Assembly: GCA_002633005.1 (NCBI GenBank)
Contig: NMRA01000170.1
Coordinates: 406,129-470,128, forward strand
Reading direction: 5' to 3'
DNA length: 64,000 bases
DNA from: Phoronis australis
Taxonomy: Eukaryota; Animalia; Phoronida
Positions 16,978-63,365 of the stretch are shown here, piece after piece. A model generated the notes under the pieces. That model was not told the origin of the DNA. It did no database searches and was given only the letters and a program-made list of their open reading frames with translations. Position 1 is the first letter of the stretch. The number at the start of each line of letters is the position of its first letter. A program made the translations under genes and the position numbers.

Positions 16978-17230
16978 TCAGTTTCTGATTTTCACTGAGG
17001 CGGAATATTTTTTCTTTAATGCTTCGTATTTGTAATACTCATACGATGTCGATGGCAAAACAGTAAAGGTGCTTGATGTGCCTGAGAATGGAGTTTTGTG
17101 ACCAAACAAGGACTTGGACACCCCAAAGTGGCGTATGCGATATGTTCCTGCAGCCTGATGAGCGGGTATGTCCCAGCGAATCGTGGCAATGCTTTCACCA
17201 AGAATGGTGCTCGTTCTTTGCCATTTAAAT
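16978..17230 (-). CDS. ASAH2: Neutral ceramidase exon 16, terminal (FKW...WDIP...GTYRIRHFG...FSGTSSTFTV...stop)
   Basis: CAG acceptor, in-frame TGA at 16978-16980. Confidence 0.88.
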
Positions 17231-35200: not shown

Positions 35201-36032
35201 GGAAAGCGATGCAAGGCACTCAAAGCGCGTGTGAGACGATAATGAGTACATCCTGGTACGCAGCAACAGCGTGGCATGTTGACTGACTTGTAAACAAAAG
35301 CAAATGACGACCGAACTTATCAAATCCGAGGTAGAACAATGACTGACTTGACAGCTCTCACAGTCTGACTGTATGAAAAGAAATTGGCACGAAATTCTTG
35401 CCTTCCAAAACGTCACTTTCGGAGTAGAGGACGAGAAATTAATTAAATTACGAAAACCTGTAATTAAGTGAAAAGTATGTCTGGTATAATCAACGGACCT
35501 TGAAAAAAGGTTGCCTTCACCTTTAAGTGAACTTACGTCCGAGTTGCAGTCTACCACTGAAATCTAAACATAACAATTTTGACATGGTGATTAGTCAGTG
35601 ACCATGTCTTCCACTAAAGACCGTGTCGCAGACTTTTTAACACGTGTGTGGATTTAGGGGTCACAGGGGGCCGCCTGCTACCCCAAAACGAAAACAATGT
35701 TTTTGAAGTCATCGCTTTGTGATTTTTTCATAATAATAGATGGCGTCATTCGACAGATCTATCGATTTACACTGACTCACTTTCGCAAGTCTGTGTGCTA
35801 CAGTAGTTGAAATTATTATGTTGGTTAACAGATAAAAGACGAGTAATAAATTTACTGAAGGAAGTTGAATCCTTACAAAATTCACATCAGCAGCTGGTCC
35901 GGTGATATCTGCAATTCCGGTACCTATCAAGTAATTAGTTTGAGCAGCTAGCGAAACAGAACCCAGAGTCAAAGCGACAGCCACCACTAACCCAACCGAC
36001 ATGACGGCTGTTTGGTAACTGAATGAACTCAT
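16978..36032 (-). CDS. ASAH2: Neutral ceramidase, complete 16-exon gene (2187 nt, 728 aa)
   Basis: Sixteen GT-AG exons join in frame from ATG 36032 to TGA 16978. Family motifs: GIADITGP, MGYA, SRAFII, GIHTHSAP, NRSPTAYLNNP, WFAVHCTSM, GDVSPN, GYSFAAGTTDGPG, VPGEFTTMSGRR, QRYEGASTIFGP. Confidence 0.95.
17577..17662 (-). CDS. ASAH2: Neutral ceramidase exon 15 (STYLTVEK...YTDSAWET)
   Basis: CAG/GTAAGT, 86 nt. Confidence 0.92.
17750..18208. mobile_element. MITE with long imperfect TIRs in a ceramidase intron
   Basis: GGTAAAAACGAGAGAAGTT..TACTAGGAGACAGTTAGTTAGTTGAGCATAATGTTTCAAGCC matches the reverse complement at 18140-18208; the IR continues at 17845-17876 vs 18082-18111. Confidence 0.75.
19425..19622 (-). 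CDS. ASAH2: Neutral ceramidase exon 14 (PGPSPP...PPVVMDG..FGDV...SPRNDL)
   Basis: CAG/GTGAGT, 198 nt. Confidence 0.92.
20318..20413 (-). CDS. ASAH2: Neutral ceramidase exon 13 (IQRYEGASTIFGPHTL...)
   Basis: TAG/GTGAGT, 96 nt. Confidence 0.93.
21416..21554 (-). CDS. ASAH2: Neutral ceramidase exon 12 (TMSGRR...AGLSNTYSDYITTFEEYQ)
   Basis: CAG/GTAAAA, 139 nt. Confidence 0.93.
23024..23118 (-). CDS. ASAH2: Neutral ceramidase exon 11 (FPYPWAPHIVPVQLLRIGQ...VPGEF)
   Basis: CAG/GTGAGT, 95 nt. Confidence 0.93.
23391..23503 (-). CDS. ASAH2: Neutral ceramidase exon 10 (NPFWNLIRN...CHHPKPILLDTGE)
   Basis: TAG/GTAAGT, 113 nt. Confidence 0.93.
23841..23922 (-). CDS. ASAH2: Neutral ceramidase exon 9 (CKPAMGYSFAAGTTDGPGAFNFSQ)
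   Basis: TAG/GTAAG, 82 nt. Confidence 0.93.
24065..24235. repeat. Degenerate (GAT/GGT)n microsatellite in ceramidase intron 8
   Basis: Direct reading; explains the His-rich, Asp-rich and Met-rich spurious ORFs. Confidence 0.85.
24255..24359 (-). CDS. ASAH2: Neutral ceramidase exon 8 (ELWNSA...GPVDFRHQFLNMS...)
   Basis: CAG/GTACGT, 105 nt. Confidence 0.88.
25320..25406 (-). CDS. ASAH2: Neutral ceramidase exon 7 (NELCVASGPGKDMFESTKIIG...)
   Basis: TAG/GTAAGC, 87 nt. Confidence 0.92.
25650..25772 (-). CDS. ASAH2: Neutral ceramidase exon 6 (FVAAFAQSNLGDVSPNTRGPHC...)
   Basis: TAG/GTGTGT, 123 nt, active-site GDVSPN. Confidence 0.92.
26974..27094 (-). CDS. ASAH2: Neutral ceramidase exon 5 (WFAVHCTSMNNTN...GDNKGYASY)
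   Basis: CAG/GTACG, 121 nt. Confidence 0.93.
27121..27260. repeat. 17-bp minisatellite (AGAACAACAATATCACC)n beside the exon 5 acceptor
   Basis: About 6-7 degenerate copies. Confidence 0.8.
28289..28494 (-). CDS. ASAH2: Neutral ceramidase exon 4 (SIDRAH...NINRSPTAYLNNP...)
   Basis: CAG/GTAAGT, 206 nt. Confidence 0.93.
28855..29031 (-). CDS. ASAH2: Neutral ceramidase exon 3 (...NVCISGIHTHSAPAGFLQY...)
   Basis: TAG/GTAACT, 177 nt, Zn-binding HTH motif. Confidence 0.93.
29701..29850 (-). CDS. ASAH2: Neutral ceramidase exon 2 (MGYANPSQTAHGIHTRQYSRAFII...)
   Basis: CAG acceptor, GT donor, 150 nt in frame. Confidence 0.92.
31584..35333. repeat. Tandem 1.87-kb duplication (31584-33454 and 33456-35333) joined by a single N; probable uncollapsed haplotypes
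   Basis: Colinear near-identical copies with SNPs and small indels; N exactly at the junction. Confidence 0.85.
34231..35522 (-). mobile_element. Non-autonomous Kolobok-like DNA transposon with THAP-domain relic (truncated duplicate at 32372-33454)
   Basis: TTAA on both sides (34227-34230, 35523-35526); termini AGG(C/T)GAAGGCAACCTTTTTTCA; about 280-bp inverted ends; minus-strand MPRCCCVPGC...HRFPKD...RRTW (THAP) and LELFRRCHVC...WECVTGHSGKWDS Zn-finger-like remnant. Confidence 0.78.
35877..36032 (-). CDS. ASAH2: Neutral ceramidase exon 1 (signal peptide, YLIGTGIADITGPAADVNF)
   Basis: ATG 36032 (alternative 36002), donor GTAAGG, phase 0. Confidence 0.88.
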
Positions 36033-36472
36033 GACCTCTCGTTTGCTCTTTGACCTAACGAGACTGAATAATAGGTCAAGTCTGTCGAAAGGGAGAGTTG
36101 TTGGCCGCGGTGTGGGAGATTCTCTCGATCATTCGGGGACATTTTGCTTTCCTACATTGCTTGACTGTGAGTCAGTTGATATTTAATTTCCGAAATAACG
36201 TACGAGTTGTATGTTTTTGGTTTTTGAAATCTCTGTTATTTCTGTGTGAATTTTCTGACGCTGGAACTGGGAGGAAGTCGAGCTGGCACGTTGTCGTTGG
36301 TGTGCTGGCTGTATAATTTGATTATCGTTGCCCAACGTTCTACGGTTTATTCTGCACGTAGGCCAAGAATCGGGCTAAGCGTCTTGGTCATAGTAATCAT
36401 TTTACTTATGTCGAAATTTTGTTTCAGAGACACCTAGAAGACTCCACAGCGTTCAGCTGTCCACTGCTAAGA
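36033..36472. promoter_or_regulatory. Compact bidirectional promoter/5'UTR region shared by ceramidase and P4HA
   Basis: Divergent ATGs 440 bp apart; candidate P4HA 5'UTR intron from GTGAGT 36167 to TTTCAG 36427. Confidence 0.7.
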
Positions 36473-36660
36473 ATGAAGAATCTCCATGGACGTTTGTTTT
36501 TGTGCTGTGTGTGTTCCGTTTTGTTAGTAAACAATGTAAAGACAGAACTATTTACAGCGTTGATGGAACTAGAGAAAGTATTACGGGCTGAAGCTTTGAT
36601 AGCTGACGACATTGAGAATTATATTGCTCTTGAACAGGACAGGCTAAATAAATTAAAAAG
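36473..36660 (+). CDS. P4HA: P4HA coding exon 1 (signal peptide, ELFTALMELEKVL...)
   Basis: ATG 36473, donor GTAAGT at 36661; the TTTCAG acceptor at 36427 suggests an upstream 5'UTR exon. Confidence 0.9.
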
Positions 36661-42600: not shown

Positions 42601-45600
42601 ATTCAGGCCCGTAGCCAGCATTGAGCGGGGAATGGTTCGAATTTCAAGAATGGTGGACCTTTTAATATTTTGCAAATGTCGACACTGTAGAAATTTCAGT
42701 AAGGCCTTTGACTCAGCTTAATTAGGGGGAAGAGAACATTGTCGCATTATCTCCTGACAAAGTTTCAAATCAGCCATGCTTAAATGAGTGATTACACCTC
42801 ATTGCATACTCAAGCGGAAATATGAAGTTTAGTCGGCAAATGACTTAACAAAATTGTTTATCTGGTTGTATTTTAGCGTGCTATTTAAGTTGCTTACATC
42901 GCTAGAAATGGGAACATTCCTCTATTTTGAAGGTTTACTACTCGGAAGCTTCACTATTCCGAAGGTTCACTACTTAGACAATTCACCACTCCGAAGATTC
43001 ACCGCTCCAAAAATATCCAAACATTCAAACTCAGATGTGATTTTTAAACTTTTACATGCAAAAATAAACGATATTTCGGTAAGTAGATGCATCTACACCG
43101 AAAACAACACCCGGGCATTAAAACACCTTGGGTTTTATGTAGACAGTGACCACCGTCTCCAGCTGGCCAGCACAACTAGAAACGGTAGTCAGATTTCATG
43201 TGCATGCGAAATTGCCCACATGTCTTAAAATGAGTATGTACTTGCATTTTAAAATGATATGAAATACGAATACTGATGAATTATTAACCATTACACAATT
43301 CATCAAATCCATGTCAAGATGGAATCGCAGCGCGACGCACATGGCCAGGTCGAAACTAAACGAAGTTAGTAGGCCACCCTATCCCTGCCACTTCTCACGA
43401 AATCAGGGAGTGCCATTTAGTCTTCTTAAATTTGAAAACAGCGTTGGTCGCCGACTTCATTGTTCTTGACGCATCTCTGGAGTTCTCTGTGGGCTCGGTT
43501 TATGATAAAGATGGAGAATGCCCAAAACTGATCAGTTTTGCCAAATTTGCCATTAATCACTGTGTGAAATGATGGTAGTTGGCGCGCATACATAACGGAG
43601 ATGACAGCAAAAGACGTCATCTGATATCGATTGTTATTCATTTTAACAGTTGCATTAAATGACTCGTCCGAAAACAGAGGGACGCAGCTTAGACTGGTAA
43701 AACAGGACAACGATAAATCGAAATTCGTGCAAACACAATATGCTATCCGTCTTGGAAAGGTTTTTATGTTTTGTTTTTAGTAGTGAATCATGTGGAGTAT
43801 TCTGCTGTTTTCTCGTGGAGGTCGTGAGGTCGTTACAACATCAGGTGCGATGTTTCTGGTTTTCATGCCCTGAGGTAAACTTACAGACAAAAATCATTCA
43901 CCTTGTGTGGTAACCTATGTCATGTGGTCTAAGTGGCTTTATTAAAAATCAAATTGCCTGGTTCCTCAATGTGATGCATATTCGTTGTGAATGGGACTCT
44001 TTATTTGTCTGATTGGGGCATCTTACTGCGGTGCCACGTGCAGTGATGCTGAACATCAGATGATTGGTTTCAAACGGTTACCTGGTGCCGGTGGGTTGAT
44101 TTAACTCAACTCAGGTACTTGGACGTGTCTGGCGGGGATAACCCACCACTAGATTTGTCTGGCAGTATTTATTCTTGATACCTGGGTTTACGGCGTATAT
44201 TTTTCAACTGGTTTCATGCGGTTACCTCTTGGGTTGATCTAGCTCAACATAGGTGTGTGGGCGTGTCTGACAGGGATAACCCACCACTACATTTGTCTGG
44301 CAGTATTTATTCTTGATACCTGGGATTACGGCGTATATTTTTCAACTGGTTTCATGCGGTTACCTCTTGGGTTGATCTAGCTCAACTCGGGTATTTGGGC
44401 GTGTCTGGCGGGGCTAACCCATGACTAAATTTGTTTGGCAGTGTTCATTCGTGACACTTGTGCTCACGGTGAATATTTTGCAACTGGTTTCACGCGGTTA
44501 CCTCTTGGATTGATCTAGCTCAATTTTTTACCATGTTTATAACCGTCTCGCTAATACTCCCCACCACTGAAATTGTCTGGCAGTGATCAATTTTGATACA
44601 GTAGATTACGTGGTAGGTATCCAAGGCAGTTTGAAGTGGTTACCAGAAAAATTGATCTAGCTCAATTTTTGAGTGCCATTCTCTTGGCTCCCCTGATCAC
44701 ACCCACCAGAGCGAACCTACCAGACAGCCATTTCCAAGCATCAGGATACCCATAGAGCACTGTGGTACCAAAGAAAATAGGTTACCTTTTCATGCCCAAA
44801 AAAGCTCTGGGATCCCAGTCTATACAGGACTACGTTTTGTTGCCTGGCAATGTTTTTATTTGTCGTCAGTTGATATGTCATGTGGTTTATTAAATCTGTC
44901 TCAAAAGCAAATGAATGAGATTTTACCTCATTGCCATTTGCTTGTACTGAAGCTGAAAAGGCATGTTATTTGATGAAAGAGGATATTTTGGGATGCTGGT
45001 ATAATTTGTAACTTCTCAGCATTGCTGTCATATTAATGATTACATGTTCAATTTGACTGCATTTTTGCAACATTGGCACAGTTTTATTGTGATGGTCATA
45101 TATTCCACTGTACATGAACTTTTTCCCGTTAGTAACAAATTTTTTCTCAGACTACCATTTTGATATCAATTAGTAAAATATATATTCAAGTCATATTTTA
45201 CATATAAAGAATAAAATGCCTATTTCAAAATAGATCATGTCTTTATTTTGGCAGATGGCCCCTACATTTTTCTTGAAGGTCATACATTTTTTCTTGAAGG
45301 TCAAATACACTCTCCAATCCTGTGGGAACCTTGGGTACTGTATTTTCTTTTGAAGATAGTATTCATTCAAGTGCAACAGTTTGGGTGTATAAAATAAAGT
45401 TTTCAGTGAACTAAATGATTTCAGACAGAATAAAACAATGCACTTGACATTTTAGTGGCAAAATGTCATTATTTAAATTGCCTAGCTGATCAGCACACAA
45501 CCTCTACCAACTCATTTCAGTATAGCGGAGGACTTCCACAATCACAGCCAGAGTGCACTTGCTGACCTGGACCATCACCTTGGCAACCCAGTAAATTCCT

Positions 45601-48600
45601 ACCTCCTTATCAAAAGATTTACGCGGGACTGGGCTCAAGTAGAAAGTCTCATTCGCGATGGTCCAGTTGTTGGTAATGTATAGTATTCTTTTACTATCAT
45701 ATCAATACTTTTAGTATCGTACTCTTTCACTTTCGCATTACAAGAGGTTTCAGGAACTTAAATATCCAAAACATCCGAGATTTGAGTCCCACTTGTTCAT
45801 ATTCTTTATTGACACAAAACTGCACTACGTCATCATGATGTGCTGAAATTGACGATGCTCACACCTACTCTTAGCCAGTCACCTAGCTGTAGACTAACTT
45901 CAAAATATACCTAAGGAACGATGCCTGTCAATTTTAAGTTTGTTTCAGATTTCATTCTGCCTCCCACATTGTTCCAATGTGTGTGTGTGTGTGCGTGCGT
46001 GCGTGTTAGTCGTACAGTTTGGCTTCAAGACTAACCTGTTCCGAGTCATATCTTGGTACGCCGTAGGCGAATACGTAGTTGTCTCTTCAGTTCAGTAATT
46101 GAGATGTAGCCCAAGGTTGTGTTCCATAGGCCCACTGAATATGTTTGCAGCACTTGTGATAAAAGTTCTTGATTTATACCACAGCAATAGTGAGTTCTGT
46201 CTCATAATTTATGAATTCTTTCATTTCCCATAATTCAACATTCCAGCTTGACCAGCCAATCATTTCATCGGCCACCATTTGGTTAGGATAGGCCAGGAAG
46301 CATGCTACTGAAACACACTTGATATTGAGGTCTTGAGACAGCTTGTTTTTTTCAATACATACTTGGTCTAAAAATGCTAACCAGGTCTCTCCCGTATGAA
46401 CCCTTCGGTACCCTTTAACTCTGTTACTACTTAGTCCAAAAATGCACCTTATCTTTCCTAATTAACCCAAAAACACTCATCTCATTTGTATTCATTATTC
46501 AGTACTATGCACAGCTTAGTATCATAATTATTTATTATGAACATTGTGTATTCACCAAATTTTGTTACATCTTTGTATGCGTACAGATTGATCTGAAATC
46601 TGCATGTAGAATTTCATAAATTGCAGAAATACAGTGGCTCACAATGTTTAATGAGCTCATTCATGATAATTTTTGAACAAATGAAAATGTTTGAATATTG
46701 AACTGTATCGGCCATCTCCAGATCTGTTGACCACCATCGACCAGAGGCGTAAGAACTTCCCCACTGAAGATGACTTAAAGGGTGCTGCCGCTGCCCTACT
46801 ACGGCTCCAAGATACGTACCAATTACCAGCAGAGAAGATTGCCAATGGTGACCTACAGGGGGTCCAGATACACACGAAGCTATCTGGTATGTGTACTTGT
46901 GGTCTCTTGAAAATGACATGTATGTAATAAGCAACGCTTTCGCCGAAGCATTCTTTAGTTGATTGCACTTGTTTTATTCTACCATGCTCAATGTTTGATT
47001 GTTAATTAAAGTTTTAGCACTAATGGAAATGTTATTGTCTGTTTTAAATAGATTTTGCTGCTGGCCAGTATTTACAATTTACGTCATCTTAGTATTGCCC
47101 GAAATCCAGAGTGCCATGCTACGTAGCAACTCTGTAATATGTGCCACAACAGCGCCATCTTTTGAAACGGTTAACTGTATCTCAAGAGACATGTTGCCTG
47201 AGGCCCACTGCCATAAACCTGTAGCCAAAAGTGGGCCTTCCATCAAAAAATGTAAGACCACTTACTGCTTTGAAATTTGCCTCATTTCTTTCCTTGCTAA
47301 AAGTGCAACTGTACTGTTTTCTGGGCTTTTGATAACACTTGCTGTATAAGTTGGCTTATCATGGCATGTGCCGAGCATGGTCTCAACCAAACTTAATAAT
47401 TTCAGATTTGTTTTTACGGCTTGTAAAATAATGACTTGTTAAGGACTAGGTTTTATTTTACTTGAACTTTCCGTATTTTTTTCCTGCATTTAATGATCAT
47501 ATATATTTAATGTCGCAATGCATGTGGAGTGCATGCAGTCATTAACAATAGATTAAATGTCTAACACTTGTGCATGACCAAGTGTACTTTTGGTTTTGCA
47601 CTGTTCAGTAGATACAGAGTGTGAGAGTAGTTGGGTCGCCCTTAATGTTGAGAACGACTGACGAACTACAAAGTATGTCTTTGGATTAATAAAGATTACA
47701 GCGTTTTTATTAAGGAACATGACTATTGTAATGTCGCTTGATTAAATGTAACCACCTGTTCAGTACACTGTTGTCAGCTTAAATTATAAACAGGGCGAGT
47801 GCGATGGGAGGGGCTCATTTCTGTGAGCACGCGTGTTATGTGAACCCTGGGTAACTGCATACCCTGGAAGATTTGTAGTCTAAGGGTTTGGTGAGCTTTC
47901 AAATTAGAATCAACATTACTGGATATATCTACAAGAGATAACTCCTGCAGGTCTACTGAGGTTCACCCTGATGCGGAATTTTTCGAGATTGTTTTGAATG
48001 TATGGCTCATGTATGGAAAACGTGTTCAAGATGTAATTATTTTCACAATTTTTGTTGCTTAAAATGAGTCTTGAAATATGTGAAGTTGGTTTCTTGCCAA
48101 CAGAGGCATTGTTCAAGGTCTCTTACAGCAACTTTGTTATCATCAGAGTGAATCTTCACTTATGCAACATGTTTTAAAGTTCACGGCTAAATGAGCCGCT
48201 GCAGTCAGAAATACATGTTTCCAAAATAACCCCCCTCTTTTTATGTGGAAACAACTTTCTAAAAGTGGTTTGTGTTTTCCCAGCAATAGTCATGAGTGAT
48301 GCGCAATATATTTCACGTGTCTAACCGATCTGTGAACCAGTGATTTATACCCCAAAATTAAGCTGACTGTTGAAACACCATTACTCTTGTCGTGATTTCT
48401 TTTCAAACTCTGCTTTAAGGCTTTTATACCAAAATGGCGGAATGGCATACTTGGTTCTAGTGTGTACCTCACTCATTTTGGGACCTGCCCCTAACTGTTT
48501 AAATAATAAATAAGCATCTGCTTACATCACTTTTTTCAAAGTTACACATGGCTTGACAACTTAACGATAACCCAACCTCCGTGGTCAACTGCTCCCCACC

Positions 48601-51600
48601 CGTTGACGTTGGTAAGCACTGCCAATCGCTTGTCACTGGACCACTGAAAATGGAAATAAAATCACGCACCACTTCAGTTGTTGTTGGGTGACCTTCCTTG
48701 AGAAAATGTATGAGTAAAAAAGACCGTATCACCTCATCAATTCCCCAAGAAACACAAACCAAAACCAGTTGTTATTTGGCCAAGGCATTAACTCACATCT
48801 TGTAGGCTTTAATCTGTTAACAGCTATGTCTGTTGCATGCTTTAGCTGTGGAGTGTTACGAGATAGGCAGGTCAGCATACATTACCGGCGACTACTATCA
48901 TACAATACTGTGGATGGAAGAATCGCTCGACCGCATCCGGGATGAGGTGAATCGTACTGTTGACGAGGCAGACATTCTTGATCATCTGTCCTACTCAAAT
49001 TTCCAGGTGAGACATTGGTGATTGTCAAGGTATGGTAGAAGTAAGACACGGATTCAATACGATGACTATATGCGACCACGTGGATGGTGTCATGTTGTGA
49101 ACTGTTGTGTTTATGCACTCGGGTTCATAGGGGCATGGAGTAAATGTCAAAAACAACAGATACTCTACTTTTTTCAGTGAAATGCTATCTTGTTATTATT
49201 TTTGGTGCAAGTTGTTAGGTACTGAAAAGGTTTCCGACAGTTGTCTGGTGACAAATTTTTAATACTGCTTAAGACACACAGATTCCATGGCTGTTGCTTC
49301 GTGATTTCGTATCCTGGCTAATTTTTCAAGATATCTATGACTTTTTGGTTGTACCCAATAGGATTTTTTGTCAGGTGTAGTCAAAACGATGCCAGGCCGT
49401 GAAGCTGTGACGTTGTAGTAAAACATCCCCATAAATTTTTTTGTTGTTTACTCATGTTAATCCTGCTGCTTTTGTGGTTGGAATGAATTTTCCTGCTCGT
49501 TGGACTGGCAAGGTAGGTCAGTGTGTTTAGATAAGTCTAGTCTCTCTGTCAAATCTTACTCTATTGTTGATAACGGTCAAACTCTGTCAGTGATTGGCTA
49601 AGGTAAGTTGCATGAGCATGGATCCTGGATGCGCAGCACTTCATAACGCCTGGACGCTTGAGAACAGACCCTGATGTTCTTGGAAAACTAGGTTTGCCTA
49701 TGTCGGACTACTTTTATAGCGGAGGAGTGTTACGAGCTTGGACGGTTCGCCTATACGAATAAAGACTACTATCATACCATATTGTGGATGGAAGAGGCGC
49801 TGGATAAATTCGAGAAGGAGGTCAACAAAACAGCAAATAAAGGCAACATTGTTGATCATCTGGCCTATGCGCATTCAGTGGTAAGCACAATAAAGGTCCT
49901 TAGGCATTCACGGATGATAGGGTCAAAAGATGCAGTACGATGGCTGGCATTTTTCAGCAGGTGACGGAACAGATCTCTAGGATGCTTAAGTCTCGGTATT
50001 TGCTGCACGATATAAGCTGAGTGTGGTTTTTCAGTTTGGATTATTTTTACTTCTTTTTCACCTCCTTATCTTTCCCTAAGTGAGCTCCTCAAAACACAAC
50101 ACAATTATTCTACCTGTGGTTGTTGTCTATGTGCTCTGTTTATCTTTAAAATATTGTTCAAGACTGAAACTATTTCGGTAGTAATAGTAACTTAGTTAAC
50201 TAGCGGTAGTCATGGTTCACCTCAGTGCGTAGTGTTGATGTTAGGTCACCAGATCCGTTCACACCCTCCACGCACTCGTGTATAACAAAAAATACACATT
50301 GGTTTGCTTACTATATTGCATTTATGCTGAATTTGTGCTTGTGTAATTTTCATCATCAGGGCGCTTTGTTTTGAATTAAGGACTAATGTACTAGGTATAT
50401 AATTGTTATGCACCCACATATTTATATGTGGTCGCATTATGCCATCATCTTTGTCCCTCCATCCGGGCGGCGTCTGTCCAGCGTCCGTCGTCCGCTGCTC
50501 TATCTCCAAAACCGGTTGACGTATGTTTATGAAATTTTGCACGTGTTCCTTTCATGGATGGGACAGCATGAGCAAAGTTTCAGACGGATCCAACTACCAG
50601 TGTGCCCCCTTGTGGCAATTTTAGTTTTTTACGTTTACCTCTGTATCTTCAAGGTCCTCAACATATTTTCACAAAATTTGGTATATAGGCATTTGTTGGT
50701 GAATGTGACTTCAGCTACCTACAACTATTGGACTGTTCTGACTACTGTTGCACCCCCTAGAGGCAATTTTAGTTTTTAAGTTAATTTGCATCTGTAACTT
50801 TACAGTTCTTTGACAGTTTTTATTGAAATGTGACAAACAAGTTTATGTTATGATGGTGATCTATTCATTTTGGAATGGATTTGACGTATTCTGTGCCACT
50901 TAGTATCCATTTTTGATACTAAGAAACACCCTTGAAGCAAACTGTTTGTATTGCTGTCGTGCGCGCATTTCAGCACTCTGCATTGCTCTTGTGTTTTGTT
51001 TTTCTTGCGTCCACGGCTGTATCTCGTTAACTCCTTGAAAGGTCTTGTGTGAAATGTGGTAGATATGTCCTTATAGAGATGATAATGGATGAGAACGAGT
51101 TTCAGACCACAGGTGTACCCCTAGTGGCAGTTTTAGTTTTTTACGTTTGCCTCTGTATGTTCTTTGATGTATGTTTCTGAAATTTGGCAAATAGGTCTCT
51201 AGTAAGGCGACAAATATGCCTTTCTATTTTTGGACAGGTCCAACGTCACCTAGTGGTCATTTTTATAGTCTTTAGTTTGTTTTTGAGCGTCTGCCAAACT
51301 GCTCAAAAGATCATTATGAATCGTAGCAGTTGTGTTCTTGGTGAGAAGACCATGGCTGACATTGATTTTTGGACGGATCTGACACCCGTGGCGTGCTCTT
51401 GGGGTGATTTTTCATTTTTTGAGACCATGGCTATAGCTCCTTGATTCCTTTACATGATGTTTGTGAGCTTTTGTATGTGTTTTCCTGTAGATGTGACAGT
51501 GGATCTCCATGACGTTTTGGAGGGCTCTAGCTGACTACCACTATGCCCCCCCCCCCGGTAGCAATTTCATTTTACCTTTACCTCTATGTCTCTTCTGAGT

Positions 51601-54600
51601 TCCTTGATGTTTTTAATGAAATTTGGAGACAGGTGTCTATTATAACAATGGCAGCATCTTTACAATTTGTTGAATTTGACATATTCTGCGCCACCTAATG
51701 GCCATGTTAATTATTTCTGAGTCTGCTTTTTGCCGCTTGCTTCTGTATCTGCCAAACCGCTCAGAGGACCATTATGAAAATTTGCAGATATGTTACTGCT
51801 GACATGGGAATGACTTGCATAGATTTTTAGATGGGTCCAACGTAACTTTGGTGCTACCTAGTGACATTATTTTGGCATCTGCGTCCCTTGCAAGATCGCA
51901 ATTTGTCAGGTCTATTCGTATTGACATCAGATGGATGGATTTGACTCCTGCTATTCCCTATAATGGCAATTTGTTTTTTTACGTCTGCCTCAGTCTGTAT
52001 ATCTGGAGTTCCTTGGTAGATTTTCATGAAATTTGACAAACAGTTTTGTAATAGAAAGATGACAAGCTTTTTCCCCGTGTATTCTCCACGAAAGTTGCAG
52101 GTCAGCTAACCAAAACCCACAGGACACCTGACCGTGAAAGTCAACAATACGGGTGTTATGTGTCGCTAGTCAACAAATGTGACATCCCTCTACTGCTAAA
52201 GTGAACCTTGACTGGTATTTCAAGTCAACAAAAGTCAAAATTTAGGTGGAAGCAAGTCTAATTCCTAATAGTCACTTGCACTCATAACACTTCTAAAGCC
52301 CACAGCTCCTCTACTTTTTTCCAAAGAGCTCCCTTGGGGCTTTTTGTAAATGCAAAACACTTCGGAGAAAATTAGAATTTCCAAATTTTGGGAAATCCCT
52401 GGCAATAGTTGCCAGTTCCCTCCAATCTGTTGCTTTAAATAAACATACTGTCATTTGAAATGCGGGTACTGAAAGTAATTGCCTTCTTTAATATTCAGCT
52501 GTTCATATATTAATTAAGATGTTGGTATTATAAAATAAATTTTCGAATGTTGTAATAAAGCTTTCATAGAAGATGGTGGTAATAAAGAAGTCATGATATG
52601 AAATTGCTTAGTAAATTAATTTTTCTGATTTAAATGGAACGCAATTGCTTTGGATGCTATGTTTATTGATATGAATGGTCCAGTGAAAAGTCTGCATTCA
52701 CTTGTATTGAGCAAACACAATGTCCTACAAGTTACTGAACACAGTCTGTGTTGGGTAATTTGTATTTGTTCCATGAATTAGTGAATGCAGAACTAAGATG
52801 CTGGTATTTAGCTGAGCAGCAGGAGTTCATCGGGGATTTCAAAAGTAGAGTTTCCAAAATGGGTTTCCCAATTTTCAGGGCATCTATCACCAATGACCAG
52901 TGACTATTAAGCTTTTATGATGTCGAGTCAAACTGCTGTTATAGTGTAGTATCTTACTGTGGTGACATGGTTGGGCACTGAAAGTTTTTGTGTCTTACAT
53001 TACTTCTATTCTCGACTGGCCAATGAGTCCTCAGAGCTGGTGCTAGCGTGTTCAGAGACACTCGTGCTTTTGCTGACTTTACTTGGGTGTCCAAATGCTG
53101 AACAGGATGTCCTAGCTTAGATGTCTGAATTTGAACCAAGGTGTGTATTTGGGTCCCCTAGACACTCTGTAGCTGAAGGCTTCATTGCTGAGCAGTTGGT
53201 GTGTTTTATTTTTTGTTCATTGAGTAGCAAGTACATACCAATGGAACTATTAAACGGACAATTTCCGTCCGAGAAAACAAATAATTTTTATTTTGTTCCC
53301 TTTAATGATCAGTATTTCGTAAAGAGTATTTTTTCTTTACAGCAAGGAAATGTTAGAAAGGCTCTGGTTTTGACCGATGAGCTCCTAACTCTTGGTAAGT
53401 GGCACTGTTCATGTTATGACAACATCGAATAGTTTATTTAAGGTTATGTGGGACCTAATCGACAAAACTACATGTGCCCAAAGAACTATAGACTTTTACT
53501 CAGTAAGAGTATACGTTCTATGCTAGTAGAAATTCCATAGAATTTGATTTCTGGCTTCATAACTTTTTGCCATTGAGTCATTTGATCTTACTTTTTAGTG
53601 AAATTTAGTAAAAAAATTAATGGTTCATTCTTAGCATAACAACAGGATCGATAACATTTACCAAATTTTGTGTGAATTGCTATTAATGTTCAAGATAAAA
53701 TTATGAAAGCACTGCTACTAGAAGTTTTCTAAGTGATTGTTTCATTTTCATTTTATGCAACTTTAAAGTTTTTTTTCTGTTTTCATAAAAGTCATACAAG
53801 TCCTTTTTTGATAGCCCTTCATGCAAAAGTGGAACATTTAAAGACAATTGCTAACAGCTTTTTAGAGAACTGTGCATAAAGCATAGTACTTGAATGTTTG
53901 TTCTTGATCCAATAAACAATTTTGAGATATAATGTTCCAATATTTGGTAAAAAATTGGAATTTTTCTAGGGTCCTACATAACGTTAATAACCTGTATGTT
54001 GTCCAATTGCTCACGCTAATTAATAAATGTATTATGTTCTCACTCAATGTAAGGCACTTTTATCTTGGATTTGATTATCAGTGACAGTTTTGTGTTTGTA
54101 TAATTTGTTATATTGCAATGATGGTGACTATGAATGTTTGTGTTGTAATAATTGCTGCTAAGAAAGCATCTTTTGTGTGGGCCCCATAATGCAATATTGA
54201 CTGAATTGTATATAGGGCTTCAGGGAGTATACACTAGACATTTACACATAAGCCGTTATCACTGATCTGAATGGACTTTTCCAAGTGTGGGTCATGAAAC
54301 AAGGCAATTAGGTCTGATCAGTTTGTGGAACTGCCGACAGACAATCAAATCAGCTGATATAAATTACTGCTATCTCCCACAAAACTTGGCCAATTTTTGT
54401 GGGGAAAAAGCTCTTTTCCCAAACTTTTTGAGGAATTCAAATGGGGGCTTTGTTTCCATCCACAAATAAGGCGAAAAAAGAATTCAAACATTTTAATTGT
54501 TTGTTCTACTCATATCTTAATGTTGTCGTATGAAAGTACAATATAGTGTAATCTAAGGGAAGGACTTGTGGTTTTCTGACCATCCAGAGTTGCTTGCCTG

Positions 54601-57600
54601 CCAACTCCAGACCGACCATCAGTGCAATGTAATGCTATGCAATTTCTAAATTTGCGTGTGGATGATAGGTAGAGTTGTAATTTTTCTGTCATTCGTGGAT
54701 AGCTAGCGACGTTGGAATTCTTGTGTGAATCACTTGGATTTCCCACTGCACAACAGTGGCAATTTAACGACCGGACATGGCAGTTGAACAAAAAATCATA
54801 AAAATGGTGGGAATTTTACAGAGTTAGGAGCGCAGAATGCTGTCCACCGACTATTCTGCCACCATCGAGTGACAAGACATTTATCATAACATTGCTGCTG
54901 GATCATGAAGTGTCTATTGAGGACAGTTTGGCTGTGGATTTTGTTTGCTTTGTACCCAGTTTTGACGCAACTGACTTGGCCTTGTATATGCACTTCTTAA
55001 TTTTTAGTATTTTCTGTGTGTCTTTTGATTACTAAAAGCAGGAAGAGATAACCAGGAAGGGACAACTAGCTAAACCGCCGTTTTTGGCCTCCTTCCCCGG
55101 ACTAATTTCAGGACTTAAGTTTCGTTTAAAAGGAAACAGATGATTTTATCAGAGAGATTTAAGCTTTTTCTATAGAAGGATATCAAAAAACTCGCTTTTC
55201 AACCTTAAACAGTGGTGTAATTGTACTTTGAAAATATCGACTTCAGCGCACGCAATCGCAATTTCCCACACGCAGTCACGGGTATTTAAGCTTTTCCGTC
55301 GATGTATAGATGGCGCAGTAGTCAAGTACTACCTCATTTGCATATCAAATTTGGATGTGGGAGTTCTGTAACCTGGTTCCCGGGCCTCACAAGATGACGT
55401 CACGGATAACTCGTGGGTCTGTGTAGGAGACTAGGAGTTCTGAGACTCCCGTCAGTTTAGTTGTTGTCGACCGCTTGAGTGCATAAAGCGGTGACCTCCC
55501 GCTGAGAGCACGCGCTGATGAAGATACCACAGCTAACTCGATCGCTTCGCAATCAGGAGGTGAAAACACTCTCATGACCGCAGTTCTGAATTCCAGCTAA
55601 GCAAGCCCTATTTCGAGGAGCGGATTTGAATTGTTTTCGTCCCCAGACTGTGGATTGCAGAGAAGATTAGAATGAGGTCAACATTGAACTTTCTGCGGCT
55701 ACCTATCGTGTTGANATTTGACAAACAGTTTTGTTATAGAAAGACGACGAGCTTTTTCCACGTGTATTCTCCACGAAAGTTGCAGGTCAAGTAACCGAAA
55801 CCCACTCGACACCTGACCGTGAAAGTCAACAATACAGGTGTTATGTGTCGCTAGTCAACAAATGTGACATGCCTCTACTGCTAAAGTGAATCTTGACTGG
55901 TATTTCAAGTCAACAAAAGTCAACATTTAGGTGGAAGCAAGTCTAATTCCTAATAGTCACTTGCACTCATAACACTTCTAAAGCCCACAGCTCCGCTACT
56001 TTTTTCCCAAAGAGCTCCCTTGGGGCTTTTTGTGAATGCAAAACACTTCGGGGAAAATTAGAATTTCCAAATTTTGGGAAATCCCCGGCAATAGTTGCCA
56101 GTTCCCTCCAATTTGTTGCTTTAAGTAAACATACTGTCATTTGAAATGCGGGTACTGAAGGTAATTGACCTTTTTTAATATTCAGCAGTTCATATATTAA
56201 TTAAGATGTTGGTATTATAAAATAAATTGTCGACTGTTGTAATAAACCTTTCACAGAAGATGGTGGTAATAAAGAAATCGTGATATGAAATTGCTTAGTA
56301 AATTAATTTTTCTGATTTAAATGGAATGCAATTGCTTTTGATACTACGTGTATTGATATGAATGGTCCAGTGAAAAGTCTGCGAACACAATGTCCTACAG
56401 GTTACTGAACAGTCTGTGTTGGGTAATTTGTGAATTAGTGAATGCAGAACTAAGATGCTGCTATTTAGCTGAGCAGCAGGAGTTCATCGAGGATTTCAAA
56501 AGTAGAGTTTCCAAAATGGGTTTCCCAATTTTTCAGGGCATCTATCACCAATGACCAGTGACTAGTAAGCTTTTATGACTTCGAGTCAAACTGCTGTTAC
56601 AGTGTAGTATCTAACTGTGGCGACATGGTTGGGCACTGAAAGTTTTTGGGTCTTACATTACTTCTATTCTCGACTGGCCAATGAGTCCTCAGAGCTGGTG
56701 CAAGCATGTTCAGAGACACTCGTGCTTTTGCTGACTTTACTTGGGTGTCCAAATGCTGAACAGGATGTCCTAGCTTAGATGTCTAAATTTGAACCAGGGT
56801 GTGTATGTGGCTTCCCTATACACTCTGTAGCTGAAGGCCTCATTGCTGAGCGGTTTGCGTGTTTTATTTTTTGTTCGTTGAGTAGCAAGTACATACCAAT
56901 GGAACTATTAAACGGAGAATTTCCGTCCAAGAAAACCAATAATCTTTATTTTGTTCCCTTTAATTATGAGTATTCTGTATAGAGTGTTTTTTCTTTACAG
57001 CAAGGAAATGTTAGAAAGGCTCTCGTTTTGACTGATGAGCTCCTAGCTATTGGTAAGTGGCTCTATTCATGTTATGACAACATTGAATAGTTTATTTAAG
57101 GTTTTGTGAGACCTGATCGACAAAACTATATGTGCCCAAAGAACTATAGAATTTACTCAGTAAGAGTATACGTTCTATGCTAGTAGAAATTCCGTAGAAT
57201 TTAATTTTTTGCTTCATACCTTTTTGCCATTGGGTCATTTGATCTTACTTTTTAGTGAAATTTAGTAAAAAATGAATGGTTCATTCTTAGCATAACAACA
57301 GGATCGATAACATAACCAAATTTTGTGTGAATTTCCATTAATGTTCAAGATAAAATTACGAAAGCACTGCTACTAGAAGTTTTCTAAGTGATTGTTTCAT
57401 TTTCATTTTATGCAACTTTCAAGTTTTTTTCTGTTTTTGATAGCCCTTCATGCAGAAGTGGAACATTTTAATGGCAATTGCTAACAGCTTTTTAGAGAAC
57501 GGTGCATAAAGCATAGTACTTGAATTTTGAGTTATAATGTTCCAATATTTGGAAAAAAATTGGAATTTTTCTAGGGTCCTACATAACGTTAATAACCTGT

Positions 57601-60600
57601 ATGTTGTCTAATTGCACACGCTAATTAATAAATGTATTATGTTCTCACTCAATGTAAGGCACTTTTATCTTGGATTTGATTATCAGTGACAGTTTTGTGT
57701 TTGTATTATTTATTATATTGCAATGATGGTGACTATGAATGTTCGTGTTGTAATAATTAATGCTAAGAAAGCATCTTTTGCTTGGGCCCCATAATGCAAT
57801 ATTGACTGTGAATTGTATATAAGGCTTCAGGGAGTATACACTAGACACTTACACACAAGCTGTTGTCACTGATCTGAATGGACTCTTCCAAGTGTGGGTC
57901 ATAAAACAAGGCAATTAGGTCTGATCAGTTTGTGGAACTGCCGACAGACAATCAAATCAGCTGTTATGAATTACTGCTATCTCCCACAAAACTTGGCCAA
58001 TTTTTGTGGGGAAAAAGCTCTTTTCCCAAACTTTTTGAGGAATTCAAATGGGGGCTTTGTTTCCATCCACAAATAAGGCGAAAAAAAGAATTCAAACATT
58101 TTAATTGTTTGTTCTACTCATATCTTAATGTTTTCGTATGAAAATACAATATAGTGTAACCTAAGGGAAGGATTTGTGGTTTTCTGACCATCCAGAGTTG
58201 CTTGCCTGCCAACTCCAGACCGACCTTCAGTGTAATGTAACGCTATGCAATTTCTAAATTTGGGTGTGGATGATAGGTAGAGTTGTAATCTTTCTGTCAT
58301 TCGTGGACAGCTAGCGACGTTGGAATTCTTGTGTGAATCACTTGGATTTTCCACTGCACAACAGTGGCAATTTAACGACCGGACATGGCAGTTGAAAAAA
58401 ATCATAAAAATGGTGGGAATTTTACAGAGTTAGGAGCGCAGAATGCTGTCTACCGACTATTCTGCCACCATCGAGTGACAAGACATTTATCATAACATTG
58501 CTGCTGTATCATGAAGTGTCTATTGAGGACAGTTTGGCTGTGGATTTTGTTTGCTTTGTACCCAGTTTTGACGCAACTGACTTTGCCTTGTATATGCACT
58601 TCTTAATTTTTAGTATTTTCTGTGTGACTTTTAATTACTAAAAGTTATTGTCTCCGTCTCCATGAAAATTGAATGTGGAGAAGGAATACACCACGGAACC
58701 TTGTTGATCTCGAATTGTGATATTACATGAAATATTTACCGGGACATCATTGCGTATAATTTATTTATTTTGAGCTTGGTAAATTCTCACCAAATTAGGA
58801 CACAAGATGGCAGTTAAGTGGAGCATTTCTTTATTTTATTCATTACAAGATGTGCCAAATAAATGCTTCTAGTGCTAAGAGTTCATTGCCATATCTACAT
58901 TAAAATGACGATGTCTTGAAAAATATTGTAGACGTTCACATCTGTTACAATGTTAGAAACCTTTGAAAAGTGAATGACTGTATGCTTCTAGTTCTTGAAT
59001 ATCGAGGTCATATTTATTATTTTTTCTACGATAGTATAAAATACTCTTGGTGTGGTGAATGCATTTACTACATAAGTGACTGGAAGAAAAACTGAGTGTG
59101 CAATGATCGTTATAATCTGCTATGACTGATGTCACAATTTCGGTACGAAAGCCATAATTCTTTCAGTTCCCGACCATGAAAGGGCATTGGGAAACAAACG
59201 TTACTACGAAACAGTCATTGCACAGCAGGAGGCACAAGCGGAAAAGAAAGGAGATGACCTTCCAGTGGAGACAAACCAAAACAAACGGCAACTGGACGAG
59301 TACAGGAACTCGCAGGAGTTTTTCAACTATGAATCGTTGTGCCGAGGGGAAGATGTTATTGTGAGTCTTTGAAACTGCTGAGTGTTTTTTATATGTTTTT
59401 TGGTCTTCATCTGCCATAATTTTCATGTTTAGACTCCTGAGTACTGTAGTCCTCAATTTTACACAAAATAATGCTGAAATCGCTACCATTTTGCTAAGAC
59501 CAAAGTTTTACCAATTGAAAGCGAATGCTTCTCTTTATAACAGTGTGCAGTACAACTGATGCTCATAATCATGTAAAAAATCAGTGTTTCTTTTTGAATT
59601 TGTCAAATTAAAATTACAGTTCTTTGCCTAATTGTCTGCTAAGTTGTAGAGCATTTCCATTGGAAAGGAGTTAAACACTTTTGATATCTGTACTGAATTG
59701 TATCACTGTGACTGTCTCCATCAGCCCAACCCAGACGTTCACAAGCTGAAGTGTTTCTACACACACAAGAACAATCCCCGACGCTACCTGAAGCCGTTCA
59801 AGGAGGAGGAAGCTTACCTCAACCCACGAATTGTTGTTTTCCATGATGTCATCACTGATGCTGAGATAGACCTGGTGAAGAAAATGGCGGGACCCCGGGT
59901 AAGCAGACGTCACGTGACATAGCTGTTGTAGACGTGCTGTCAGTTGTTAGCAGTTGATAGACGTAAACGTTGTTTTCATATTCCTGGTTTTAAGGCTTCT
60001 GCAGAATTCATCTGTTGCTGACTCTATAAACTGTATATTAACTGTCTGTATTTTGTATCCTAAAAGCTCAGACTTGCTGTATTTTATCCATTGCTAAAGA
60101 GTAACTATTAGACCTCACAAAAGCAATTCTAACTAGACAGCACTGAGTCATAACTTGTAATGTTAGACTGTTTACACATACACGCATGTCAGGCTTATGA
60201 TCGAAAATAAAACAAGACTTGTTTGCCTTTGAAGCTTCACTTTAAACCAATGACGTGTTGACCTGTAGTTGGGTGTGCAGTCTAACTTTTGACAGTTGTG
60301 GTTTTCACAACTATTAGTTTGACAATGTTTCATTTTCCTAAATATAAGTTCAATTATTTACATCCCTTATGACGTATTTGCAAAAACAAATGTTTTATCT
60401 TCAGGACATCCATTGTTTGATAAAAGTAGTGTAATCTCATTGATTAACATTGACGGACTTGTTTTTTCTTTGTTTTGAAGGTCATAATCTATAAAAAATT
60501 GTCATTTCCTGGCTTTTAAAGTTCACCAACAATCATATACGTATAACATGTAATATGACATTTGAAACAAAAAGTTGTAGATTGTAATAGTTTGATATTT

Positions 60601-63365
60601 CCCTCTGGATACAGTGATGTAGTAATGTTTAGTGGTTATTATTCTCAAAGATAAGTTGTAACCTACTTTGTCTTGACACTTCTTGCACCAAGCTTTAAAA
60701 CATTTTTTCAGCTTAAACTATGCACAGACGATGAGTCACTAGTCTAGGTATCTGCGTCAAGTGAAAGGTGGTTACCTGCAAACAGCCAGAAAAAATACTC
60801 AGTGAAACACGCCAATTTGGCTAGTTCTTTCAGTTGTTTTCTAATTTTCGCTCCTTGGATACATTTTGCCATGTGCCTCCTGTTTACTACATAACCTCCT
60901 CTGAATGGTGTCGTGATAATTTCGCATGAGTGAATGGTCATATTTCATCGGTCAGTGAAGCTTATCAACCAAGCTCTGTGCAGCTCATCTCACCCGCCCA
61001 CTGTGAGGATTTGGACGCACTTGTTAAGAAATCAAGCACATAGTCTACTTTCCTCACCGCCTTGTGAGGAAAGATGCTCCCAGTTCACTTAGGGGCAGGC
61101 ATGAGTTATTACCTGGTACACACATTTGAGGTGGATGACTCTCTGTCTGAGCCTAGCTTTACAGACTCTCTGTCATTTTTCATCTATTATTCATTATAAG
61201 TATTCTTCCAGCTGAACCGTGCCACGATTCAAAATCCAACTACAGGAAAACTGGAGTTTGCGCCGTATCGAATCAGTAAGAGGTAAGAACAAAGTATGAG
61301 TTAAGGAACCCTTGCGTGTAGACTTATAGGTGCTTGAGGTCCCTAAGTGAAATATTGGAAGTATGTATACTCATTTGATTTCATAACTTGGACGGTTTTT
61401 CTTACCTCAACCTCTTACCTCAACATAAAATTTTTGACACACTGTGTGATGCTGCCTGACTAAAAATAGATAGCAGGCAGTCATTAGACATACACAGGCC
61501 TCATAGGTCGGGCCTATTGTACAAAACACCTGATTTGGATCTCACGAGAACCCTCATGTGTATATTGTGACAAGGTTGTTCTTCCTGAGAGCAGTTGCAA
61601 AATCTGTAGACGGGTAGGTCACATTCATCTGCTATTGGTGGTTGGAATTTGAACCGAGTTACTGTTTACAGATAGAATCCACAACCAATATCGTTTCTGC
61701 TTGTCTGGTCATCTGACTTGACTACCTGAATGTTTCCATGTATGCAGTTGTTACATTATTTCTCAGGCACCACAGTGAGAAACTTGCTGTAAATAATCCC
61801 ATTGTGGATTCAAACAGATTTTTACTATGAACAATTTTGCACTGGGATACAAATTGTGGTGGGATTGTCAGTCCCAGCATCTATACCAGGATTATTCTGG
61901 AAACATTTATTCATTAGTTTGCTGGGTTTGATTGTTTAATCCACTGTCGGAGCATGCGTGATATTACTCTGCCTTTTGTGTTTATTGTCTTTCTGATATT
62001 ATCATGTCTTGGCCACTTAATTATCTGTTCTGACACTGGGTACATTTGTTCTGATAACAGGGTGCAACATAACTTGCTGGGATTTTTTAATAGCACGGGA
62101 CACAACCGATTAAGGAAAATAGTTCCGGTAAGAGATTCATGCAAAATGACTAGGATTTTGAAATATTGGGAACACAGCTTTTGTGAATTTTGAACTAGCC
62201 TTTGTCTTTGGTTCTCCAGTTTATGTAAGAGTGGGTTATTTTTCCCTGACTTGGGTTCTTGCATTTTGTGTTGTCAGTGCCTGGTTGAAGACTTATGAGG
62301 CACCGTTCCTTGAAACTCTAGAACAGCGTGTTGCCGACTTCACACAACTCAACATGGAGGTGGCTGAAGAACTCCAGGTATGGCGATGACTGGTTTCAAC
62401 TTAATTTGCCCCCGTATTTTCATCAATAAATAAGGTGGACAATTATAGATATTAAGCAAATTTTAAACACTTTTTCATAATCATCATATAAAACATGGTT
62501 CATTACATTAAAATCTCAATTATTTGGCAAAAAAGCCAAAATAGCTTTGTCATTTTTCAAAATTTTTAACCTTGTTATGAATGCCTGCAATTTTTCAAAA
62601 TATTGTCTTATGATAGTTTAATGGAAACAGAAAAGTAAAGCAATTTAGTTTTTTGCTAACTTATCAATTAATGAAAAAATGAGACCATTAAGCTCATATA
62701 TCTTTCCATGTTGCATCCAAAATTGGGGAGATTTTACCCCATTCCCAAAATATGAAATTAATGTATTTTCTTTAATTGTATTGCAATTGAGTGAAAAATT
62801 CATTCAATACATTTTCTTCCCTGATACAGACAAAAATTCTTAATTGTGTACAGTGTGTCTTTAAAAGCCATGTTATTGATACCTTTAACTTTGTGATTCA
62901 AGCTGCTTGTACCATGTACACTTTTAGGTTGTCAATTATGGGATTGGTGGCCATTATGAACCGCACTATGACTTTGCAAGGGTAAGTGACTTGTGTGTTT
63001 AGTTTTGGGGGGCATGTCCGTGCTCCATATGTTAACCATTGCGTGAATATGAACCTGGGGTAGACTCGCTCCAGTTTGTGTCACAGAAACTTGAAAATGT
63101 CATCCTTTTTACTTCTAAAATGTCATGGCGTCATTGTATTTGTTTGAAAAATTCATGGTTCACCTGAATCAAATTTTTGAAACGTAGTCAAAGTGAACTA
63201 TATATGAGCTGGAATACCCCTTGTAAATGATTCATGTTTTGGTTGACATGAGCCAGGCCACTGCCCTTTAAGTGCATAGAACCTCTATAAACATGTCTCA
63301 GTGTTTTGTAGGTAGCCAATTATGGAATTGGCGGCCATTATGAGCCTCATTTTGATCACGCACGG
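36473..63365 (+). CDS. P4HA: Collagen prolyl 4-hydroxylase alpha subunit, 5' portion (437 codons visible; gene continues past the window end)
   Basis: GT-AG exons join in frame: signal peptide + ELFTAL, HLGNPVNSYLLIKRF..DW, FPTEDDLKGAAAALLRLQDTY, TPR-like substrate-binding domain, YESLCRGE, FHDVITDAEI, RATIQNP..G.LE.A.YRISKSAWL, AEELQV.NYGIGGHYEPHxD. Paralog number (1/2/3) cannot be assigned. Confidence 0.95.
41456..44819. mobile_element. 3.4-kb foldback element with arms built of about 139-bp tandem subrepeats, in the first P4HA coding intron
   Basis: Left arm (41456 to about 42520) is the reverse complement of the right arm (about 44030-44819); GAGCTAGATCAA/TTGATCTAGCTC recurs every 137-142 bp. 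Confidence 0.88.
42931..43012. repeat. 16-bp minisatellite (AGGTTCACTATTCCGA-like) x5 inside the foldback
   Basis: Direct reading. Confidence 0.65.
45521..45672 (+). CDS. P4HA: P4HA coding exon 2 (HLGNPVNSYLLIKRFTRDW)
   Basis: CAG/GTAATG, 152 nt. Confidence 0.92.
45978..46006. repeat. (GT)n/(GTGC)n microsatellite
   Basis: Direct reading. Confidence 0.85.
46722..46886 (+). CDS. P4HA: P4HA coding exon 3 (FPTEDDLKGAAAALLRLQDTYQL)
   Basis: CAG/GTATGT, 165 nt. Confidence 0.93.
48846..49006 (+). CDS. P4HA: P4HA alternative exon 4a (AVECYEIGRSAY...ILDHLSYSNFQ)
   Basis: TAG/GTGAGA, 161 nt, phase 1 to 0. Confidence 0.9.
49720..49880 (+). CDS. P4HA: P4HA alternative exon 4b (AEECYELGRFAY...IVDHLAYAHSV)
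   Basis: TAG/GTAAGC, 161 nt, same phases as 4a. Confidence 0.9.
50405..52060. mobile_element. Old Helitron/Helentron-like non-autonomous element with a degenerate internal tandem array (about 130-160 bp units)
   Basis: Head TTATGCACCCAC..GTGGTCGCATTATG followed by a CGTC-type microsatellite, then about 10 degenerate units containing GCCCCCTAGTGGC-like cores and TGAAATTTG; family assignment is inference. Confidence 0.55.
53343..53394 (+). CDS. P4HA: P4HA coding exon 5, copy 1 (QGNVRKALVLTDELLTL)
   Basis: CAG/GTAAGT, 52 nt; lies inside the duplicated 3-kb block. Confidence 0.8.
55039..55714. mobile_element. Insertion present only after copy 1 of the duplication (probable polymorphic transposon end, cut off at the contig join)
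   Basis: Copy 1 reads TACTAAAAG|CAGGAAGAG... and copy 2 reads TACTAAAAG|TTATTG...; the segment is more GC/CpG-rich than the flanking intron. Confidence 0.5.
57001..57052 (+). CDS. P4HA: P4HA coding exon 5, copy 2 (QGNVRKALVLTDELLAI), probably the other allele
   Basis: CAG/GTAAGT, 52 nt; 4 nt differences from copy 1. Confidence 0.75.
59167..59360 (+). CDS. P4HA: P4HA coding exon 6 (PDHERALGNKRYYE...YESLCRGE)
   Basis: CAG/GTGAGT, 194 nt. Confidence 0.93.
59725..59898 (+). CDS. P4HA: P4HA coding exon 7 (LKCFY...PFKEEEAYLNPRIVVFHDVITDAEI)
   Basis: CAG/GTAAGC, 174 nt. Confidence 0.93.
61212..61282 (+). CDS. P4HA: P4HA coding exon 8 (LNRATIQNPTTGKLEFAPYRISKS)
   Basis: CAG/GTAAGA, 71 nt. Confidence 0.93.
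62278..62377 (+). CDS. P4HA: P4HA coding exon 9 (AWLK...AEELQ)
   Basis: CAG/GTATGG, 100 nt. Confidence 0.92.
62928..62981 (+). CDS. P4HA: P4HA alternative exon 10a (VVNYGIGGHYEPHYDFAR)
   Basis: TAG/GTAAGT, 54 nt, HxD iron-binding motif. Confidence 0.92.
63312..63365 (+). CDS. P4HA: P4HA alternative exon 10b (VANYGIGGHYEPHFDHAR)
   Basis: TAG/GTAAGT, 54 nt, HxD iron-binding motif. Confidence 0.92.

Follow-up and report, generated by a model that had tools for sequence, protein, structure and literature searches.

Human P4HA1, which encodes an alpha subunit of collagen prolyl 4-hydroxylase (P4HA), carries a pair of duplicated exons, 9a and 9b, that are used on an either-or basis and lie in the catalytic domain; alternative transcripts also exist for P4HA2. 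The 9a/9b ratio is under hypoxia control (PMC11868403, PMC12525012; these and the papers below are cited from those parts of their text that were available). In addition, vertebrates possess two isoenzymes, C-P4H-I and C-P4H-II, whose peptide-substrate-binding (PSB) domains are variants with different peptide affinities (PMC12433258, Table 2). These isoenzymes go back to a gene duplication, differ at residues 182 and 233, and both have an aromatic residue at position 199. Further relevant cases are known as database models from lophotrochozoans. In the isoform pairs of Lingula anatina (XP_023930564.1/XP_023930562.1), Octopus sinensis (XP_029649806.1/XP_029649805.1), Pecten maximus (XP_033757090.1/XP_033757100.1) and Tubulanus polymorphus (XP_074648752.1/XP_074648755.1), the same PSB segment (roughly 53 residues) is swapped between identical flanks, with a non-aromatic residue 199 in one of the two forms.

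The window (the whole 64,000-nucleotide stretch of Phoronis australis DNA that was analysed) contains a lophotrochozoan P4HA gene with two versions of exon 4, 4a and 4b. As with C-P4H-I and C-P4H-II, two PSB variants are thereby encoded in one animal, but they are splice forms of a single gene and differ at residue 199. In contrast to human 9a/9b, the exchanged exons lie in the PSB domain, and whereas most of the lophotrochozoan database isoforms also differ at 196 (Phe versus Tyr), Tyr196 and His193 are found in both exons of the window. The reads confirm 4a and 4b as a genuine pair of mutually exclusive PSB exons, at a position common to several lophotrochozoan phyla. Such pairs have been annotated automatically, and we found no description of alternative PSB exons in the literature searched, which consisted mostly of main texts outside subscription journals, so that the pair could still appear in genome-wide tables of splicing events; a preprint on Drosophila PH4alphaEFB (PMC12340787) makes no mention of exons, splicing or mutual exclusivity. 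The novelty is tempered because the isoforms are already present in automatic annotations and either-or exons of P4HA have long been known elsewhere. On balance, we consider it probable that 4a and 4b arose by tandem duplication, that only one of them enters any given mRNA, and that the resulting P4HA forms differ at 199 and likely also in the tightness or selectivity of substrate binding.

Two versions of exon 4 in a P4HA gene

The gene was rebuilt over 36473-63365 on the forward (+) strand. Coding exon 1 (36473..36660), with the ATG, the signal peptide and the start of the N domain, was placed by its open reading frame and GT donor. Exon 2 (45521..45672) continues the N domain, is flanked by AG/GT, and is joined to exon 3 in 53, 40 and 6 reads of RNA runs X1, X2 and X3, respectively. 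Exon 3 (46722..46886), supported by read joints, ends the N domain in phase 1 and scores 50 bits against Pfam P4Ha_N (cut-off 25.3), which shows that the N-terminal dimerisation domain is present. Exons 4a (48846..49006) and 4b (49720..49880), both 161 nt long and placed by read joints and Pfam TPR_P4H, encode PSB helices H7-H9 with Phe199 and Ser199, respectively, and are separated by an intron of 713 nt (49007..49719) across which no joint was listed. Exon 5 (PSB helix H10) was assembled twice, at 53343..53394, with read joints from both 4a and 4b, and at 57001..57052, where it differs by 4 nt; most reads carry the letters of this second copy, which is likely the other allele, within a 3-kb tandem duplication that has a single N between its copies. 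Exon 6 (59167..59360), present in one copy only, encodes PSB helix H11 (Arg223, Asn227, Tyr230, Tyr231 and Thr233) and a linker. The catalytic domain follows in exons 7 (59725-59898), 8 (61212-61282) and 9 (62278-62377), and the reading frame is open for 437 codons with either exon 4. The gene contains a second duplicated exon pair of 54 nt each (62928-62981 and 63312-63365; 41/54 nt identical) with the HxD iron-binding motif, and judging from its sequence this pair is likely mutually exclusive as well; the distal His and the C-terminus lie past the window end. In five other lophotrochozoan pairs that were checked, catalytic-domain variation was found in the segment after the HxD-exon segment instead.

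Of note, two tandem duplications are present in the window, 52027-55038 versus 55712-58644 (3.0 kb, 92.5%) and 31584-33454 versus 33456-35333 (1.9 kb, 95%), each with a single N at the junction, and in both cases two alleles have probably been assembled one after the other. It is the 3.0-kb duplication that doubles exon 5, for which X3 reads show the letters of both copies. P4HA is arranged head-to-head with a neutral/alkaline ceramidase gene at about 17000-36128 on the (-) strand (Ceramidase_alk match), the first coding exons of the two genes being only some hundred bases apart, and a single open frame of 548 codons with WSC and sulfotransferase domains lies at 10446-12089 (-).

The first-pass annotation had described 4a and 4b as exons of 161 nt with 31 of 54 amino acids identical, both running from phase 1 to 0, and this description held: exons 1-3 total 505 nt, both exons have AG/GT flanks, and 30 of the 53 whole codons are conserved (31/54 when the split Ala codon is counted). 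At the nucleotide level 105 of 161 positions are identical, with synonymous differences at 13 of the 30 conserved codons. The features it had listed were also recovered, namely DYYHTILWMEE, an N-x-T sequon and DHLxY in both exons, DH where human PSB-I and PSB-II both have DY, and a difference in charge (exon net -8 for 4a versus -3 for 4b; -3 versus +1 over residues 175-191). Both products exceed the TPR_P4H cut-off of 27 bits by a wide margin (72.7 for 4a, 67.7 for 4b), with human PSB-I and PSB-II as their best PDB matches (E 1e-12 to 1e-13). A tblastn search returned no third copy of exon 4 in the window, and exon 4b, used by itself as query for homologues, gave no match.

Either-or use of exons 4a and 4b in RNA

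RNA evidence came from three raw-read runs (X1, X2 and X3; 18-19% of each was read) and one contig set (X4), all chosen by species label. In X1, X2 and X3, respectively, exon 3 was joined to 4a in 31, 51 and 3 reads (total 85) and to 4b in 1, 3 and 4 reads (total 8), while exon 5 was joined to 4a in 24, 30 and 3 reads (total 57) and to 4b in 0, 2 and 8 reads (total 10); all of these introns are GT..AG. In X4 a single contig reads 2-3-4b-5, and 4b is the only form there. The RNA-seq check across exons 3-5 that had been proposed at the outset thus connected both exons with both neighbours, and one of the two outcomes named as fatal to a switch, that one exon is never spliced in, did not occur. 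Within a narrow, repeat-free stretch, 3>4a and 3>4b were the only joints listed. Loose read ends behind 4a (30, 31 and 3 reads; 64 in all) without exception ran into exon 5, as did those behind 4b (7 reads, X3); exon 3 also had loose ends behind it (3+3 reads), which ran into 4a. Joints from 4a to 4b or from 3 to 5 were not listed in any of the three runs, where listing required 3 reads with 2 starts within a run. Within this detection limit, 4a and 4b are spliced one at a time.

The ratio of the two forms depended on the sample. The 4b share of joints was 1/56 in X1, 5/86 in X2 and 12/18 in X3 (upstream and downstream joints pooled, so that the same fragments may supply both), which amounts to 2-6% in X1 and X2 and about two-thirds in X3. 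When upstream and downstream joints were tested separately, X1+X2 differed from X3 with Fisher p=7.5e-4 and 1e-6, respectively. Thus, 4a is the major form in X1 and X2, and 4b in X3 and the X4 contig, with total support for 4b amounting to 18 joint reads and that one contig. Because the alleles of X3 differ from those of X1 and X2, genotype could explain the 4b ratio, and tissue, stage and genotype are confounded in this comparison. The reads list 11 variants in 4a, of which 6 are synonymous, and 3 in 4b, of which 2 are.

The first-pass annotation had further argued that inclusion of both exons or of neither would shift the frame and that NMD would thereby enforce exclusivity. The frameshift is borne out by the gene model, in which the first stop in exon 5 falls at nt 29 when both are included and at nt 12 when neither is. 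Transcripts with a stop several introns before the mRNA end are, as a general rule, NMD targets, and both stops are so placed; any such mRNAs would therefore be expected to be cleared in this way. NMD enforcement of exclusivity is accordingly possible, and the data are compatible with it; steady-state RNA cannot tell NMD from exclusive splicing as such. Simple steric exclusion is unlikely because of the 713-nt intron and a 26-nt AG-free zone, and a search for RNA-pairing elements gave 18 short inverted repeats, which is at chance level and included none that was convincing. Regulation of the switch by tissue or stage would fit the sample-dependent ratios. Intronic repeats at 50216-52279, 53656-54687 and 55032-55700 draw many RNA reads that are 90-95% alike; these belong to repeat families transcribed from elsewhere in the genome.

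Two other readings of the pair can be judged against these data. Since haplotype-like tandem duplications across single Ns occur twice in the window, 4a and 4b might themselves be two alleles assembled in tandem, like exon 5. This we regard as refuted for practical purposes, because the exons are only 65% identical, the introns that flank them are unrelated (34/100 and 26/100 identical), and in the reads each exon has the same splice neighbours and its own allelic variants. Slightly less remote, yet still very improbable, is the notion that 4b is decaying or seldom used, and that its mRNA is splicing noise. The few 4b joints in X1 and X2 are what such a notion would predict, but the predominance of 4b in X3 and its exclusive presence in the X4 contig are not, and in addition the 4b frame is intact, most of its few listed variants are synonymous, and b-forms are kept across phyla. 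Decay or noise as the source of 4b is thus largely refuted by the read joints.

Residue 199 and the proline pockets

In humans, the residues that make up the PSB pockets are Tyr158, Asp192, Tyr193, Tyr196, Tyr199, Arg223, Asn227, Tyr230, Phe231 and Tyr233 (PMC12433258), a numbering that is confirmed by Phe199 of PSB-II (PMC13377042). Alignment to human PSB-I and PSB-II placed the first five of these residues in exon 4. Tyr158, Asp192, His193 and Tyr196 are the same in 4a and 4b, and only 199 differs. This residue falls within the LSYSNFQ/LAYAHSV stretch, which had been quoted earlier without 199 being singled out, and in human crystal structures it lines the P5 pocket (PMC12433258, PMC13377042). 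In outgroups it was Tyr or Phe in 130/130 proteins (vertebrate-range 96/96, ambulacrarian 10/10, arthropod 24/24; 11 more proteins could not be segmented and were left out of the count). His193, present in both window exons, was also seen in the Tubulanus b form and in the short ORFs P0002, P0003, P0005 and P0022, which include both aromatic and non-aromatic 199; elsewhere Tyr193 is nearly invariant.

The initial proposal had been that aromatic residues in this region, which underlie the isoenzyme difference in vertebrates, make the two exons a splice switch for substrate preference. In humans, the difference between types I and II in poly(L-Pro) binding has been ascribed to Ile182 and Tyr233 (PMC12525012, PMC12433258). 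For these positions the analogy failed: both exons have Asn at 182, whereas 233, encoded by the constant exon 6, is Thr here and was never Tyr in the 12 lophotrochozoan proteins checked, and 4a and 4b consequently do not reproduce the human type I/II-like difference. What stood was a pocket difference, at 199. Alanine mutants of Tyr193, Tyr196 and Tyr230 raise the Km (PMC12433258), and the texts covered here describe no mutant of 199. By analogy with those mutants, loss of the aromatic wall of the P5 pocket, which would leave this pocket more open in the b form, may lower the affinity for proline-rich peptides or shift the preference among them. A functional substrate switch is plausible, within the limit that four of the five pocket residues in exon 4 are identical between 4a and 4b.

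Equivalent pairs in other animals and the origin of 4a and 4b

The ortholog survey that had been suggested for this locus showed that the segment at this position is also exchanged in 19 taxa (molluscs, a brachiopod and nemerteans), known for the most part from automatic NCBI isoforms. Both forms were present in 12 of the 13 lophotrochozoan clusters looked up (the Pomacea b form being an unnamed cluster member), with one form only in Sepia; the Mytilus and Physella pairs were obtained directly, apart from the cluster look-ups. In all 15 pairs that were aligned, the difference block was the roughly 53-residue exon 4 segment; beyond it, 5 pairs had another block, in the catalytic domain, and one pair had three single changes. 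Seven gene models (Lingula, Tegillarca, Biomphalaria, Aplysia, Candidula, Pinctada and Nucella) have both copies in tandem, and in 7/7 of them, as in the window, the exon with aromatic 199 comes first and the non-aromatic one second; P0001 and P0153 were not counted, since each has two matches because it holds two gene-length copies. One exon has a non-aromatic 199 in 17 of the 19 pairs, and Tyr199 is found in both exons of the clams Ruditapes and Mya; because the a/b labels of isoforms were set partly by 199, the tandem set provides the unbiased count. A search for proteins with the same flanks and a different segment, for which 349 of 367 long proteins could be segmented, yielded lophotrochozoan pairs and, besides these, just one unnamed pair, which is oyster-like. 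No annelid pair was among these proteins, and b-like proteins with Ser/Ala199 were found among unnamed records that group with annelids. An alternative PSB exon was seen in 0/7 arthropod and 0/9 ambulacrarian clusters read (Saccoglossus left out; as these are annotated isoforms within 90% clusters, absence is unproven), and the vertebrate proteins examined likewise showed no PSB swap.

Molluscs, brachiopods and nemerteans split in or before the Cambrian. Across groups, a-forms resembled a-forms and b-forms b-forms in 120 of 131 comparisons (114/131 without columns 199-200), and in the exon tree (52 columns; 27/63 forks open) the a and b labels each needed 4 changes, versus 15.9 for shuffled labels. 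This likeness and the few label changes suggest that the pair likely predates the mollusc radiation. A single duplication would then be ancestral to the molluscs, brachiopod and nemerteans, and the window pair would descend from it.

Whether this also holds for 4a and 4b themselves, and whether the exchange affects substrate binding, was weighed against two alternatives. The window pair fitted the a/b classes in 14/19 comparisons over all columns, but in only 7/19 without columns 199-200. Moreover, the 58% identity of 4a and 4b is the joint highest of 20 pairs, and a tree with both as sisters was not rejected (p-AU 0.32), which together with the shared and rare His193 makes an independent duplication or gene conversion possible. 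Such a separate, younger or gene-converted pair, with convergent loss of the aromatic 199, is in our view doubtful and concerns the origin only. Against it, the gene belongs to Lophotrochozoa by the constant-exon tree (86/98, not starred), where it falls outside the molluscs that were sampled and, with weak support, near Lingula and annelids; the segment limits, the order and the direction of change match all seven tandem models; and one origin of all b exons was not rejected either (p-AU 0.25). For comparison, AU tests of single-species sister pairs gave p values of 0.12 for Pecten, 0.10 for Lingula and 0.002 for Octopus, a rejection that is trivial because other cephalopod rows are present. 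Still less likely, though deserving consideration, is that the exons are kept for stability, N-domain packing, glycosylation or splice regulation while both bind substrates alike. Besides the unchanged pocket residues, this would agree with the packing of H7-H8 against the N-terminal domain (PMC12433258), with most of the 23 differences between 4a and 4b falling outside the listed pocket residues, and with the occurrence of the sequon in 8/19 a-forms and 12/19 b-forms. On the other hand, the sequon is kept in both window exons, and two positions of the pockets belong to the clearest a/b differences over the 19 pairs, namely 199 (aromatic in 19/19 versus 2/19, partly by labelling) and 196 (Phe in 17/19 a-forms, Tyr in 17/19 b-forms; Tyr in both window exons).

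The reading that we prefer, an exclusive tandem pair whose products probably differ in substrate binding, can be extended, more tentatively and with less than even confidence, to a duplication in a lophotrochozoan ancestor that left Phoronis, molluscs, brachiopods and nemerteans with two isoenzymes from one gene, one with the canonical groove and one with an opened P5 pocket, the latter being switched on by tissue or stage for other proline-rich substrates. If true, this would be the equivalent, at the level of splicing, of the split between P4HA1 and P4HA2 in vertebrates, arrived at via a different pocket residue. The pairs are natural enzymes that are alike except for half of the PSB domain, they are kept over several phyla, and the change in the proline pocket recurs among them; they would permit a clean test of the PSB contribution with a constant catalytic domain. 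More speculatively, they may be relevant to the way in which a single gene lets molluscs and related animals hydroxylate a variety of collagens. Finally, long and often acidic insertions between H8 and H9 were seen in the a-exons of heterobranch gastropods (P0335, P0348, P0386 and P0331), reaching about 38 residues in the Aplysia model, with the b-type exon being without the insertion.
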